Assembly: GCA_021780305.1 (NCBI GenBank)
Contig: JAJXYZ010000042.1
Span: 1-38,845, forward strand
From: a bacterium
GTDB taxonomy: Bacteria > Patescibacteriota > Saccharimonadia > Saccharimonadales > Saccharimonadaceae
Direction of reading: 5' to 3'
Length of the DNA: 38,845 bases
The notes beneath the pieces are model-generated. The model was not told the DNA's origin. It saw only the letters and a list, made by a program, of their open reading frames with translations, and did not search any database. Both the position numbers and the translations under genes were made by a program. This document shows, in pieces, positions 23,342-30,308 of this stretch. How positions within the stretch are numbered: position 1 is the first letter of the stretch; each line of letters starts with the position of its first letter.

Positions 23342-23791
23342 ATGAAGATATATCTAGGCAGCGACCATCGGGGCTTTCACTTAAAACAAGAAGTTTTTGC
23401 ATACTTAGCAAAGCACAATTACGAAGTTGAGGATGTTGGCGACAACGTCCTTGATCCAAATGATGACTTTCCGGAATTTGCCCAAGCAGCCTCGCTTAAG
23501 GTTTTAGGCAGCGACGACAAAGATCCACGTGCAATTTTACTATGTGGCGGCGGCCAAGGTATGGCAATGGCAGCTAATCGTTTCCGTGGTATCCGGGCAA
23601 GTGTGATTTGGGATGCCTATGAGGCTAAAATGTCTCGAAACGACAACGACAGTAATGTTTTGTGCTTGCCAGCGCGGGTATTAGAAGAAGACGACAAAGC
23701 CTGGCAGGGAATTCTGGAAACTTGGTTAGCAACACCTTTTGCGACCGCTACCCGTTATAAACGACGTAATGCACAGATTGATGAGCTGTAA
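23342..23791 (+). CDS. rpiB: Ribose-5-phosphate isomerase B
   Basis: 149 aa with 'IYLGSDHRGFHLK', 'ILLCGGGQGMAMAANR' and 'NDSNVLCLPAR', the RpiB/LacAB signature. Confidence 0.9.
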   Translation: MKIYLGSDHRGFHLKQEVFAYLAKHNYEVEDVGDNVLDPNDDFPEFAQAASLKVLGSDDKDPRAILLCGGGQGMAMAANRFRGIRASVIWDAYEAKMSRNDNDSNVLCLPARVLEEDDKAWQGILETWLATPFATATRYKRRNAQIDEL

Positions 23792-24435
23792 TGAGTGTTA
23801 TTGCGCCCTGCATTACCGTAGAGACGCCTGAGGATTATAAAGCGTCAGTCGAGCGGATTCATCCGTTTGCTCAGCGGGTTCATATTGATATTAGTGATGG
23901 TGAATTTGCACCAACTTTTTTACTGAGTGAGTCGCAGATATGGTGGCCAAAAGAGTGGCAAGTCGATATTCATGCCATGGTGGCGCGTCCGGCCGAGCAT
24001 ATCCAGTCGTTAATTAAACTAAAGCCAAGTTTGATCACTTTTCATGTCGAGACCGGCGTTAATTTATTACCACTAATGGCGCAAATTAAACAGGCTGGTA
24101 TTAAAGCCGGCGTGGCCCTGCTTAAGCCAACCGTGCCAGCAACCTTCGTAGATGTTATCAAGGCAGCCGATCATGTCATGGTGTTTAGTGGCGACTTGGG
24201 TCATTACGGTGGCAGTGCTAGTCTAATGCAGCTCGAAAAGGTTCGTTTAATTAAGGCTATTAACCCAGGTGTCGAGATTGGTTGGGATGGCGGTGTTAGT
24301 GCTGATAATGCCTATACCTTGACCCAAGGCGGCGTTGACGTCCTAAATACTGGTGGCGCTATTGCAAAAGCAGCCGATCCAGGTCTTGCTTATGCTACAC
24401 TTGTTAAAGAGATAAATAAGCACGGAGTTATTTAG
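23791..24435 (+). CDS. rpe: Ribulose-phosphate 3-epimerase-like TIM-barrel protein (divergent)
   Basis: 'RVHIDISDGEFAP' (compare H-x-D-x-M-D-G-x-F-V-P), 'VDIHAMV', 'ITFHVE', 'KAGVAL' and 'IGWDGGV'. TAATG overlap with rpiB. Confidence 0.65.
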   Translation: MSVIAPCITVETPEDYKASVERIHPFAQRVHIDISDGEFAPTFLLSESQIWWPKEWQVDIHAMVARPAEHIQSLIKLKPSLITFHVETGVNLLPLMAQIKQAGIKAGVALLKPTVPATFVDVIKAADHVMVFSGDLGHYGGSASLMQLEKVRLIKAINPGVEIGWDGGVSADNAYTLTQGGVDVLNTGGAIAKAADPGLAYATLVKEINKHGVI

Positions 24436-25305
24436 ATGAGTGGGCAATTAACGATCGGGCAGCTTGAACAAAAGGCCAATGATATTCGCGAAGACATTAT
24501 TCGGATGCTTGAAGCAGCCGGCAGTGGTCATAGTGCTGGTCCATTAGGTCTAGCCGATATTTTTGCGGCGCTCTATTTTAATATCCTAAATCTTGACCCT
24601 AAAAATCCCGAGTGGTCTGATCGCGACATTTTATTCTTAAGTAATGGCCATACTATTCCAGTTCAATATGCGGCAATGGCGGAAGCTGGTTACTTTGAAA
24701 AAGAAGAGCTTTTGACACTACGCAAACTCGGTAGCCGACTACAAGGACATCCTGAGAGGGAGCGTTTACCGGGCTTGGAAAACACTAGCGGCCCACTTGG
24801 TAGCGGTTTGTCGCAAGCAGCTGGCTATGCCTACTCGATGCAATATATGGATAATATCAAGCACCGATTTGTTTATGTCGTAATGGGTGATGGCGAACTG
24901 GATGAGGGTAATGTTTGGGAAGCAGCGATGTTTGCCGGAAAGTACAAATTATCCCAACTAGTGGCGATAATCGATCGTAACAATATTCAGATTGATGGTA
25001 GCACCGAAGATGTAATGCCGCTCGAGGATCTGCGTGGCAAATGGGAATCATTTGGTTGGCATGTTCTTGAAATCGATGGGCATAATATTGAAAGTATGAT
25101 TGATGCGGCTAGTATGGCGCGGGCAATTACGAATCGTCCAAGTGTGATTATTGCGCATACAATACCTGGTAAAGGTGTTGATTTTATGGAATACGACTAT
25201 AAATGGCATGGCGTGGCGCCAAATAGTGACCAGGCCAAAGAAGCACTTAAGAAATTGCGGACACTTGACGGCAAGATTACGTTTGAAGGGGCAGGCTTAG
25301 AATGA
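24436..25305 (+). CDS. Transketolase, N-terminal (TPP-binding) subunit
   Basis: 'GSGHSAGPLGLADI', 'SNGHT', 'GPLGSGLSQAAG' and 'GDGELDEGNVWEA'. Split-gene form. Confidence 0.92.
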   Translation: MSGQLTIGQLEQKANDIREDIIRMLEAAGSGHSAGPLGLADIFAALYFNILNLDPKNPEWSDRDILFLSNGHTIPVQYAAMAEAGYFEKEELLTLRKLGSRLQGHPERERLPGLENTSGPLGSGLSQAAGYAYSMQYMDNIKHRFVYVVMGDGELDEGNVWEAAMFAGKYKLSQLVAIIDRNNIQIDGSTEDVMPLEDLRGKWESFGWHVLEIDGHNIESMIDAASMARAITNRPSVIIAHTIPGKGVDFMEYDYKWHGVAPNSDQAKEALKKLRTLDGKITFEGAGLE

Positions 25306-28188: not shown

Positions 28189-29697
28189 ATGGCAAAGTTT
28201 TTACAGCAGTTATTAAAAATTAATGAGCCAACGTTTAGTGTTGGTATGTCTCAGCTCGAAAAAGCGACCGGTTCTAGCGGTGTTGATACCCGCTTAATTG
28301 CTGATATTACTCATAAGGCGCACGATATTATGAGGCATCTTGGGTTAGACCCGGCCGATAGTACGGGTCGCGAACTTTATCAAGCACTAGTTAGTAGCGT
28401 TAAGCGCGGGACTTTCGAGAAACTGTTAGTTAATGCTGACTACGTCATGATGTCATTTGTCGGTGAACCTGTCTCATTTAACTTGATAGACGTAATTGAG
28501 AATGCGCATCACGAACTGACGTTCGAGCAAAGAATAATGAGCCATGGCCAACGTAGCCTACGTGGCGAAATAGTGCAGCGTTACTTGCAACATTCTAGCG
28601 TTGACGAGAGTGTGACGCTTGATGTTGCTAGTGAAACCGGTCTACTGCCAGAGACCGATAAATTGTACAAAGAATCAGAAGCGATATTTAAAGAGTCTGC
28701 GTCAGACACGCCTAGTGTTTTAGCGATTGGCGATATCTTTACAGACGCTTTTATTAAATTACGTGAAGATAAGGCGCGAATTGATACAGACCCAGACGGC
28801 AGTAAACGTCTGAGTATGGAATTTGGCTCAAAACCACCATATGAACAAGTTGATATAGTTCAAGCAGTTGGGCCATCGCCTAATGCGGCGGTTTCACTTA
28901 GTCGATTAGGGCTTAGGGTCGGGCTATTAGCCTTTCTGGGTGATGATCAACCCGGCAAAGATTCACTCACTAAACTACAGTCCGAGGGCGTTGATACAAG
29001 TATTATGTCGATTAAGCAGGGCATGAAATCGAACTATTATTATGTTCTGCGCTATGGAGCTGACCGTACGATATTAGTCAAGAACGAAAATTACGACTAT
29101 GTCTGGCGTGAACCAAGAGAGGTACCGGATTGGATATATCTATCATTGATTAGCGCCGCGTCATGGCAGCTACACGAAGATTTGTTGACATATCTGGAAG
29201 CTCATCCAGCAACGAAATTAGCGTTTCAGCCTGGAACTTTCCATTTTGAATGGGGTATCGATAAGCTGAGTCGCGTCTATAAACGTAGTTATATTGTGGT
29301 AATGAACCGTGAAGAAGCTGCCTTAGTTACCGGTAAAACTACTGAATCGGTGCGTGATTTAGCGCTTGCTCTCCACGAATTAGGTCCGCAAATTGTCGTC
29401 ATTACCGACGGTCCGGCAGGCTCTTATGTGTCGGGCGATTATAAGTTTTTGTCGATGCCAAATTATCCCGACCCAGCACCACCATACGACCGTACTGGGG
29501 CGGGCGACGCCTTTGCTTCGACAATCGTAGCGGCTTTGGCTTTGGGCGAAAGTCTCGAGACGGCTATGACGTGGGCCCCAATAAATTCAATGAGTGTTGT
29601 CCAAAAGTTAGGTGCTCAGGCTGGTTTACTAAATGCTACAGAGCTGAAGTCATACCTAAACAAAGCCCCCGACGACTATAAGATTAAGGAGTTATAA
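28189..29697 (+). CDS. PfkB-family kinase fused to an unassigned ~175-aa N-terminal domain
   Basis: Residues ~176-502 have the PfkB fold ('VLAIGDIFTDAF', 'DRTGAGDAFAST'). Residues 1-175 carry no motif I can recognise. Confidence 0.75.
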   Translation: MAKFLQQLLKINEPTFSVGMSQLEKATGSSGVDTRLIADITHKAHDIMRHLGLDPADSTGRELYQALVSSVKRGTFEKLLVNADYVMMSFVGEPVSFNLIDVIENAHHELTFEQRIMSHGQRSLRGEIVQRYLQHSSVDESVTLDVASETGLLPETDKLYKESEAIFKESASDTPSVLAIGDIFTDAFIKLREDKARIDTDPDGSKRLSMEFGSKPPYEQVDIVQAVGPSPNAAVSLSRLGLRVGLLAFLGDDQPGKDSLTKLQSEGVDTSIMSIKQGMKSNYYYVLRYGADRTILVKNENYDYVWREPREVPDWIYLSLISAASWQLHEDLLTYLEAHPATKLAFQPGTFHFEWGIDKLSRVYKRSYIVVMNREEAALVTGKTTESVRDLALALHELGPQIVVITDGPAGSYVSGDYKFLSMPNYPDPAPPYDRTGAGDAFASTIVAALALGESLETAMTWAPINSMSVVQKLGAQAGLLNATELKSYLNKAPDDYKIKEL

Positions 29698-29699
29698 AA

Positions 29700-30308
29700 G
29701 TGAGATATCAAATTTGTGTTTCTGGAGCAGCATCGGGCAGTACAGTCCAAGCTGCCCATCAATTAGCCTTTGATCTTGGTAAAGCAGTCGCTTCACGCGG
29801 CAAGACATTGATGACTGGCGCAACTGTCGGTTTACCGTGGTATGCCGCCAAAGGTGCCTTTAGCGTTGAGGGAAAACGAGGCATGTCAGTTGGTTTTTCG
29901 CCGGCGACATCTTTTCGCGAGCACGTAACGGTTTATAAGTTGCCAACTGTTGAGTTTGACTACATTAACTTTACGAGTATGGAATACGTTGGTCGTGATG
30001 TTCACTTGGTTCGCAGTAGCGATGCTGTTATTACAGTTGGTGGTCGTATGGGTAGTTTGCACGAATTCGCGACAGCATTAGAGAGTAAGAAGGTTTGTGG
30101 TGTCCTGCTTGGCAGTGGCGGCCTGGCTGATTATATTCCAACCTTATTAAAAAATGTCGAAGCGCCCGGTGCCAATGAAGTTATTTATGATACCGACCCC
30201 GATCGCTTGGTTCAAAAGGTAATTGATGCTTTAGACAAAAAATATATCGGATTTGAATACTATCCCGATGACCGTCATATTTCTGAAAACCGGTCTGGGA
30301 ACGGCTGA
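29700..30308 (+). CDS. LOG/TIGR00725-like (SLOG Rossmannoid) protein
   Basis: GTG start 2 nt after the upstream stop. Has 'ICVSGAASG', 'LMTGATVG' and 'AVITVGGRMGSLHEF' (compare the LOG PGGxGTxxE motif). Confidence 0.55.
   Translation: MRYQICVSGAASGSTVQAAHQLAFDLGKAVASRGKTLMTGATVGLPWYAAKGAFSVEGKRGMSVGFSPATSFREHVTVYKLPTVEFDYINFTSMEYVGRDVHLVRSSDAVITVGGRMGSLHEFATALESKKVCGVLLGSGGLADYIPTLLKNVEAPGANEVIYDTDPDRLVQKVIDALDKKYIGFEYYPDDRHISENRSGNG

Follow-up and report, generated by a model that had tools for sequence, protein, structure and literature searches.

How could a member of the Saccharibacteria turn pentose phosphates into triose phosphates with no recognisable phosphofructokinase (PFK) or transaldolase? 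Papers on Saccharibacteria and on the Candidate Phyla Radiation (CPR) report a glycolysis "missing phosphofructokinase" together with an incomplete pentose phosphate pathway (PMC6031116, PMC7304191, PMC7143001, PMC8386444), and how Saccharibacteria epibionts gain energy and nucleotides is an open question (PMC11665869). The problem is raised here by a cluster of eight genes, rpiB-rpe-tktN-tktC-fba-pfkB-1-pfkB-2-SLOG, located at positions 23342-30308 of a 38,845-nucleotide stretch of DNA from a member of the Saccharimonadaceae (hereafter the window; contig JAJXYZ010000042.1 of assembly GCA_021780305.1). The source assembly amounts to 737 kb and is 82% complete, the window being its contig C13, and homologues carry the name Candidatus Saccharibacteria in their source records. 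In the reading that we put forward, and to which we give about even credence, the cluster is a core central-carbon operon in which triose phosphate would be made from pentose phosphate without transaldolase, along a route of the sedoheptulose-1,7-bisphosphate (SBP) type, with the SLOG protein supplying ribose-5-phosphate (R5P).

The eight open reading frames (ORFs) all lie on the + strand, at the positions given in an initial annotation of the window, and the junctions from rpiB to the SLOG gene measure -1, 0, -4, +9, +1, +3 and +2 nt. Every gene identity is backed by Pfam and NCBIfam profile searches, in agreement with the gene content and tight coupling first described. The cluster opens with rpiB, coding for ribose-5-phosphate isomerase B (23342-23791; PF02502 (LacAB_rpiB), 9e-41; NF004051, 140.9 bits for a cut-off of 135), followed by rpe, coding for a divergent ribulose-phosphate 3-epimerase (23791-24435; PF00834 (Ribul_P_3_epim), 1.4e-26) that scores under the NCBIfam equivalog cut-offs and has the HxD and DGG motifs in its translation. 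Transketolase is split into a thiamine pyrophosphate-binding N-terminal subunit, tktN (24436-25305; PF00456 (Transketolase_N), 2e-59), and a C-terminal subunit, tktC (25302-26297; PF02779 (Transket_pyr), 7e-37; PF02780 (Transketolase_C), 9e-34). The next gene, fba (26307-27218), encodes a class II ketose-bisphosphate aldolase (PF01116, 7e-66, 223 bits for a cut-off of 25.5), whose substrates would be fructose-1,6-bisphosphate (FBP) and, as proposed here, also SBP; against NCBIfam equivalog and subfamily models it reaches 213.7 bits versus 343 and 202 versus 215.6, below or just below the cut-offs. Two kinases with PF00294 scores of 138 and 118.5 bits (cut-off 25.8) come next. The first, pfkB-1, is at 27220-28185 (5.5e-40); a longer ORF starting at 27148 exists, yet the orthologues align from the ATG at 27220. 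The second, pfkB-2 (28189-29697), consists of an N-terminal domain of 158 amino acids (aa; 28189-28662), a disordered linker (aa 159-170, 28663-28698) and a PfkB kinase domain (28699-29697; 4.8e-34). The last gene (29700-30308) codes for a SLOG cluster-4, TIGR00725-like protein (PF18306, 2.5e-25), a putative nucleoside-5'-monophosphate (NMP) phosphoribohydrolase.

Using the concatenated operon proteins as query, we searched 41 related genomes from 17 genera of the order, and 40 fetched loci were tabulated ORF by ORF. The succession gap..rpiB-rpe-tktN-tktC-fba-pfkB-X-SLOG-uvrB, where X is an orphan gene discussed below, turned out to be the standard arrangement of the class: gene order is shared by 24/24 tabulated class loci and by 41/41 of the relatives searched, across the 17 genera and two further families of the class. 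Such an arrangement is far beyond chance, and the cluster is real and under selection, yet ordinary for its lineage. The conservation for which the initial annotation had called is thus observed, and its picture of an unusual, non-textbook operon gives way to an ordinary class-wide Saccharibacteria arrangement. In two families, a class I aldolase (PF00274, 1.8e-111) sits in the exact slot of the class II enzyme (locus L029 of genome G035, 7319-8380; L030 of G039, 9679-10722); because class I swaps for class II at the same position, the aldolase slot appears functionally constrained. The G035 locus also carries a single 496-aa ORF (4878-6368) in which aa 1-204 correspond to an Rpe-like epimerase and aa 212-494 to the N subunit of transketolase.

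PfkA was found in none of the 41 relatives and is absent from the assembly of the window too, and phosphoglucose isomerase (PGI) of the PF00342 type was likewise found in 0/41. Transaldolase occurs in seven relatives, with none in the other 34 or in the window's own assembly, and a nucleoside phosphorylase (PNP_UDP_1) in three. A search of the 41 genomes with a polyprotein of E. coli GlpX, Fbp, Pgi, Udp, RihA, DeoA, DeoB and DeoD returned a single GlpX and a single weak Udp match. In the window's own assembly, local tblastn searches found tpiA, adk, pgk and pyk, with pyk, pgk and tpiA together on contig C42, and none of pfkA, fbp, glpX, pgi, glk, ppnN, amn, udp, gsk, rihA, rihB, psuG, deoA-D or eno. 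The absence of transaldolase, claimed from the window alone, therefore extends to the assembly, where it was checked together with pfkA (none) and nucleoside phosphorylase (none detected).

Without transaldolase, the sedoheptulose-7-phosphate (S7P) formed by transketolase has no exit, and without PFK or fructose-1,6-bisphosphatase the aldolase has neither source nor sink for FBP. What the SBP variant of the pathway requires is exactly what the cluster encodes, Rpi, Rpe and Tkt together with a kinase and an aldolase, and the kinase and aldolase of the cluster probably stand in for the absent PFK and transaldolase. In the route proposed, RpiB, Rpe and the split transketolase would interconvert pentose phosphates, a PfkB kinase would phosphorylate S7P and fructose-6-phosphate (F6P) at C1, and the adjacent aldolase would cleave SBP to dihydroxyacetone phosphate (DHAP) and erythrose-4-phosphate (E4P), and FBP to DHAP and glyceraldehyde-3-phosphate. 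Three pentose phosphates would become five triose phosphates for the upstream Gap and then for Pgk, Tpi and Pyk, encoded elsewhere in the genome. The terminal SLOG protein, LOG/PpnN-like, would release R5P by splitting NMP into base and R5P. Substrates and direction of flux are all inferred here from the observed gene identities, conservation, fusions and absences.

A route of this kind is established in cellulolytic clostridia (PMC7029132). These also lack transaldolase and have Rpi, Rpe and Tkt, with a PFK-type kinase and FBP aldolase turning S7P into E4P and DHAP; the clostridial kinase, however, is a PfkA-family PFK (using pyrophosphate or ATP), whereas the only candidate here would be a PfkB kinase, of the ribokinase superfamily, encoded in a pentose phosphate operon. 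The notion of a PfkB and aldolase bypass of transaldolase, put forward in the initial annotation, is backed by the pathway gaps just described and by gene fusions. A PfkB kinase adjoins fba in all loci, in a set of genomes with no PfkA, and fusions of PfkB to class I aldolase (about 665 aa) form at least 35 sequence clusters in Saccharibacteria, their kinase half being 62-67% identical to the pfkB-2 kinase of the window. One PfkB-aldolase fusion has the reversed domain order, and another (P0260; L066 9001-11010), of PfkB2 to class I aldolase, stands alone among unrelated genes, far from those of the pentose phosphate pathway.

A maximum-likelihood tree resolves two kinase types, with the pfkB-2 kinase domain (type 2) in a separate clade (support 100/97) and pfkB-1 (type 1) clustering with kinases that precede X in other classes of Patescibacteria. 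The slot holds one PfkB kinase, of either type, in most relatives, and both in the clade of the window. The two-kinase set initially described is therefore confirmed in the window, which carries the only two PfkB genes of the source genome, but as a lineage-specific feature, most relatives having a single gene. PfkB kinases as such are present in 315 of the 401 Patescibacteria genomes sampled. The catalytic and anion-hole residues Asp255 (GAGD), Asn46, Asn187 (NxxE) and Asp16 (RbsK numbering) are kept in the two kinases of the window and in their orthologues. In fold searches, a structural model of the pfkB-2 protein gives nothing but generic neighbours of ribokinase fold, with near-equal scores for sulfofructose kinase, ribokinases, PsuK and a nucleoside kinase that do not discriminate between substrates, and the Pfk-2 model NF007632 scores 17.3 bits versus a cut-off of 353 for pfkB-1 and does not match pfkB-2. 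That the kinases might prove to be ordinary ribokinases had been allowed for in the initial annotation. Neither passes as one, because their scores are about a third of the cut-off or less (115.5 and 80.6 bits versus 299.65 for TIGR02152, 68 and 59 versus 341 for NF008353, for pfkB-1 and pfkB-2 respectively) and because the RbsK ribose ligands Asn14, Lys43 and Glu143 are not kept. These are replaced by T, N and a gap in pfkB-1 and by F, P and A in pfkB-2, and are conserved in neither clade, in an alignment of about 25% identity in which the Glu143 position is the least certain. Membership of the ribokinase family is thereby ruled out for both proteins, which is not a rejection of ribokinase activity. 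We think it probable that pfkB-2 is an F6P, and possibly S7P, 1-kinase, and the type-2 kinase would be the best candidate for the S7P/F6P step in the window; pfkB-1 might phosphorylate S7P, act on ribose or nucleosides, or serve as one partner of a heteromer.

A different view of these kinases, unlikely in our judgement, is that one or both are pentose or nucleoside kinases, making R5P from ribose or making NMP from nucleosides for cleavage by the SLOG protein, in the manner of PsuK and PsuG with pseudouridine, with the aldolase serving some other purpose and pentose phosphate leaving through phosphoketolase or another enzyme. The top NCBIfam matches are indeed to models of ribokinase, ribose-1-phosphate kinase and nucleoside kinase, and the fold neighbours include ribokinases, PsuK and the Methanocaldococcus jannaschii nucleoside kinase; all those family scores, however, are far under their cut-offs, and the three ribose ligands are missing. 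Type-1 kinases outside the class adjoin rpiB-rpe, and in some cases neither tkt nor fba is close by. The long coexistence of the two types, and their tandem fusion in one 660-aa protein (P0282; L067 2429-4411, in the order tktC-fbaI-(T1-T2)-X-SLOG-uvrB), suggest that they have different jobs. On the other hand, neither a nucleoside hydrolase nor a ribose source was detected in the tblastn searches of the own assembly or in the search with E. coli queries, and in most relatives the PfkB kinase is the only one, PFK, transaldolase and phosphoketolase all being absent, so that S7P could go no further and the aldolase would lack a substrate. The PfkB-aldolase fusions moreover point to a ketose bisphosphate as the product, at least in the case of type 2. 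A mixed version, with pfkB-1 acting on ribose or nucleosides and pfkB-2 as the PFK, is quite possible.

Phosphoketolase also counts on the side of pentose or nucleoside kinases, as it is found in most of the genus. An Xfp-type enzyme is encoded by 21/24 same-genus genomes (among them G021, contig C26, 7381-8463, and G017, contig C1, 59731-60813), the nearest relatives included, and by genomes of 2/16 other genera of the order; it was not found in the window's own assembly, G012, G014 or G022. All seven transaldolase genes lie antisense between fba and pfkB-1 within the cluster, including those of the close relatives G014 (L016 6317-7720) and G022 (L015 11028-12143); the insertion in G002 is at L018 6302-7378, and the same location is seen in G171 (L047 5337-6410). 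The type-1 kinases of the four transaldolase genomes represented in the tree (G022, G014, G002 and G171) form a subclade of their own, which suggests that a tal-pfkB segment has been exchanged within the family.

The kinases are also linked to X, a protein of about 419 aa encoded between the kinase and SLOG genes in other families. X has more than 1000 homologues, none of them named and none with a Pfam domain. It gave no match to Pfam, no match to PDB sequences by phmmer or profile, and, as an AlphaFold2 model with a mean predicted local distance difference test (pLDDT) score of 77, no Foldseek match at E <= 0.001. A profile of X, searched in the 401 sampled Patescibacteria genomes, found it in 41: 22 of the 25 Saccharimonadia and 19 genomes from 12 other families. 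In 15 of 16 loci inspected outside the class, X directly follows a type-1 PfkB kinase and lies beside rpiB, rpe, tkt, gap or fba. Transaldolase was present in 3/41 X-positive versus 76/360 X-negative genomes (Fisher p = 0.037), which is a weak hint, the genomes being phylogenetically related and the presence of Tkt uncontrolled.

In the window, X survives in shortened form. The N-terminal domain of pfkB-2 noted in the initial annotation is indeed present, and its identity is now that of a shortened copy of the separate conserved gene X. Residues 1-170 of pfkB-2 have no family match in Pfam or NCBIfam, and the short-X domain has no match in Pfam or PDB. Its alignment to X covers residues 1-73 and about 336-402, the N- and C-terminal modules, some 255 central residues being cleanly deleted. 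The deleted part includes an invariant His-rich block, and the window protein accordingly failed as a full-length X, the conserved His-rich central core being missing. Short X is a separate gene of about 170 aa in most species of the genus and is fused before the second kinase in the clade of the window and in two other genera of the family; fusions of short X to PfkB (about 505 aa) make up at least 120 sequence clusters. An AlphaFold2 model of the pfkB-2 protein (pLDDT 84) has a folded helical domain at aa 1-158 (pLDDT about 80-90), a linker at aa 159-170 (pLDDT < 50) and a normal PfkB fold. In this genus, with the presumed catalytic core lost and only the tethered module kept, short X would fit a role in docking or regulation. 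X is tied to the kinase by phylum-wide adjacency and by the fusion in the window; its tie to a LOG-type enzyme likewise combines adjacency with a fusion, though another one. Here, as a folded 158-aa module tethered to pfkB-2, it would partner the kinase and the LOG-type enzyme.

That other fusion comes from g20, a genus of the same family, in which full-length X is joined to a C-terminal canonical LOG domain in a 650-aa protein that replaces the SLOG gene (L046 of G149, 7396-9348; L047 of G171, 7412-9364; PF03641, 1e-30; TIGR00730, 132 bits for a cut-off of 96). The slot, which elsewhere belongs to the SLOG gene (found after X in 16/17 genera), can therefore be taken by a true LOG enzyme. The SLOG protein of the window scores 89.3 bits with PF18306 (SLOG cluster 4; cut-off 26.3) and 56.1 bits with TIGR00725 (cut-off 106.9), as a divergent member; it does not match PF03641 and reaches 28 bits versus 96.35 with TIGR00730. 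The earlier label of LOG/TIGR00725-like protein thus needs qualifying: it belongs to SLOG cluster 4 rather than to LOG proper (PF03641), while its link to LOG gains support from the g20 fusion. Alignment places its Arg98 at the catalytic Arg, and its Glu122 at the motif Glu, of the g20 LOG domain and of E. coli PpnN, and both positions are kept in all SLOG orthologues. The resemblance to LOG/TIGR00730 proteins and PpnN covers a Rossmann-like SLOG fold and the Arg and GG..G(S/T)xxE Glu at aligned positions, in a motif one residue longer than that of LOG, and the R5P released would feed RpiB. We suspect, with slightly less than even confidence, that a LOG-type NMP phosphoribohydrolase would be the only visible source of R5P here, because nucleoside phosphorylase, phosphopentomutase and nucleoside hydrolase were not detected.

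X and the SLOG protein might instead be regulatory, a nucleotide-binding sensor and its partner adjusting the kinase or pathway in response to nucleotide or alarmone status, with R5P coming from elsewhere. SLOG domains often sense ligands, and a cofactor carrier is among the nearest solved relatives. In the genus, X has lost its conserved His-rich core, yet what remains is retained as a folded module attached to a kinase. PpnN is controlled by (p)ppGpp, and a rel gene is encoded 1.6 kb upstream, on the opposite strand. The conservation of the catalytic Arg and Glu positions in all SLOG orthologues, the substitution of a bona fide LOG domain for the SLOG gene in g20 and the many invariant His, Asp and Glu residues of long X, typical of an enzyme, make this regulatory role improbable. 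It is less probable still that the cluster is a compact housekeeping array left by genome reduction, its last three genes having no pathway link to the pentose phosphate and aldolase genes, for although tiny genomes do pack unrelated genes together, and the unrelated uvrB follows in the same orientation everywhere, such an array accounts neither for the independent fusions (short X-PfkB, long X-LOG, PfkB-aldolase and type-1-type-2 kinase), nor for a transaldolase gained at an exact site and an aldolase class swapped in place, nor for the PfkB-X pairs that adjoin rpiB and rpe in a further 12 families of the phylum.

Several observations weigh against the transaldolase-free route with its SLOG-derived R5P. 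Both kinases find their best family matches among ribokinase-like models, Pfk-2 reaching only 17 bits. Enolase was not found in the 82%-complete assembly, and the E. coli polyprotein search behind some of the absences is less sensitive than searches with hidden Markov models. Phosphoketolase is another outlet for pentose, so that the SBP route need not be the sole one in the lineage. PfkB-X clusters outside the class have no SLOG gene, and two relatives (G029 and G034) have none in the cluster. The SLOG motif VGGRMGSLHE (GGxxGSxxE) has one residue more than the PGGxGTxxE of LOG, and Ser for Thr. To our knowledge no member of SLOG cluster 4 has a characterised activity, and the nearest solved relatives are weak matches that include a molybdenum cofactor carrier, a binding protein. 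Burning nucleotides is costly for an organism unable to make them. Lastly, the cultivated strain TM7x is reported to make ATP from glucose (PMC12815258), and hexose entry by another type of PGI may exist. As the PF00342 PGI is absent yet TM7x uses glucose, either there must be another PGI or hexose entry or hexose is not used here.

The comparison with TM7x also bears on the kinases directly. The orthologous TM7x "ribokinase" encoded next to fba (TM7x_02415, Nanosynbacter lyticus) is predicted to be a pfkB-type PFK and is induced by glucose (PMC12815258), so that the idea of PfkB as the PFK is already published for this strain. The window resembles TM7x, as well as other PfkB-type PFKs (E. coli Pfk-2, archaeal PFK-B), in that a PfkB-fold kinase adjoins fba in a genome with no PfkA; it differs in having two divergent kinases, one of them with a short-X domain. 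The TM7x paper mentions neither transaldolase nor the pentose phosphate pathway. Within the literature searched, we found no PfkB and aldolase bypass of transaldolase in Saccharibacteria, no X family and no LOG link (PMC12815258 was not searched for X or LOG), and the term TIGR00725 gave no match.

Other known systems share part of the logic. E. coli PsuK and PsuG also pair a PfkB kinase with a co-encoded NMP-cleaving enzyme that releases R5P, but the PsuG fold is unrelated, no PsuG homologue was found in the window's own assembly and the kinase match is weak (26 bits). The archaeal and CPR salvage route through AMP phosphorylase, ribose-1,5-bisphosphate (R15P) isomerase and form II/III RuBisCO likewise uses nucleotide ribose as a source of carbon and energy, in organisms whose metabolism is minimal, and the archaeal and CPR pentose bisphosphate pathway also has PfkB-family ribose-1-phosphate kinases. 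The DeoA-type (thymidine/AMP) phosphorylase was not found here (RuBisCO and R15P isomerase were not searched for), and the route proposed for the window, unlike the pentose bisphosphate pathway, would run through R5P and transketolase.

A larger claim would be that PfkB, X and LOG/SLOG form an undescribed nucleotide-ribose catabolic module which, with the PfkB/aldolase bypass, would be the main source of carbon and ATP for Saccharibacteria and some other Patescibacteria, X being an enzyme or an obligatory subunit. We regard this as doubtful; if true, Saccharibacteria epibionts live largely by burning host-derived nucleotides. More modestly, the cluster offers candidates for the missing steps, namely a PfkB kinase with its aldolase, a LOG-like entry of R5P and a conserved orphan protein X linked to both through gene fusions, and standard metabolic maps of Saccharibacteria would change if these were true. 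Each idea is directly testable, because genetics is available for cultivated Saccharibacteria (PMC12815258; PMC11665869 cites genetic analysis of S. epibionticum).

As to the surroundings of the cluster, gap, coding for a glyceraldehyde-3-phosphate dehydrogenase of 338 aa, lies just upstream (21786-22802, + strand), as first noted, with an orthologue of gap ahead of rpiB in almost all related loci. The gap-rpiB spacer is variable, from 25 to 1700 nt in close relatives. In the window it contains a small G+C-rich ORF on the - strand (22911-23255), coding for a hydrophobic protein, and an 11-bp inverted repeat at 22859-22892. In G022, a second, divergent RpiB-like ORF (165 aa, 36% identical; L015 16093-16590, +) is found between gap and rpiB on the strand opposite to them. 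An Rfam scan of the window gave zero matches, and a consensus scan for internal promoters and terminators gave none above shuffled controls, the counts being equal to those of shuffled sequence and hence uninformative.

Expression signals were also read from the sequence at either end of the cluster. A weak promoter-like TTGCGC-17 nt-TATACT (23307-23335, + strand), below the threshold of the promoter scan, precedes rpiB. Shine-Dalgarno-like purine runs precede the internal genes. The rpiB start plausibly is leaderless, because it has no Shine-Dalgarno run and the TATACT ends 6 nt before its ATG. Downstream, uvrB (30351-32336, + strand) is a conserved neighbour found in the same orientation in every locus. 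Like rpiB it has no Shine-Dalgarno run, with a TATAAT 5 nt before its TTG/ATG start (30335-30356); it probably has its own promoter, and leaderless starts may be common in the source genome.

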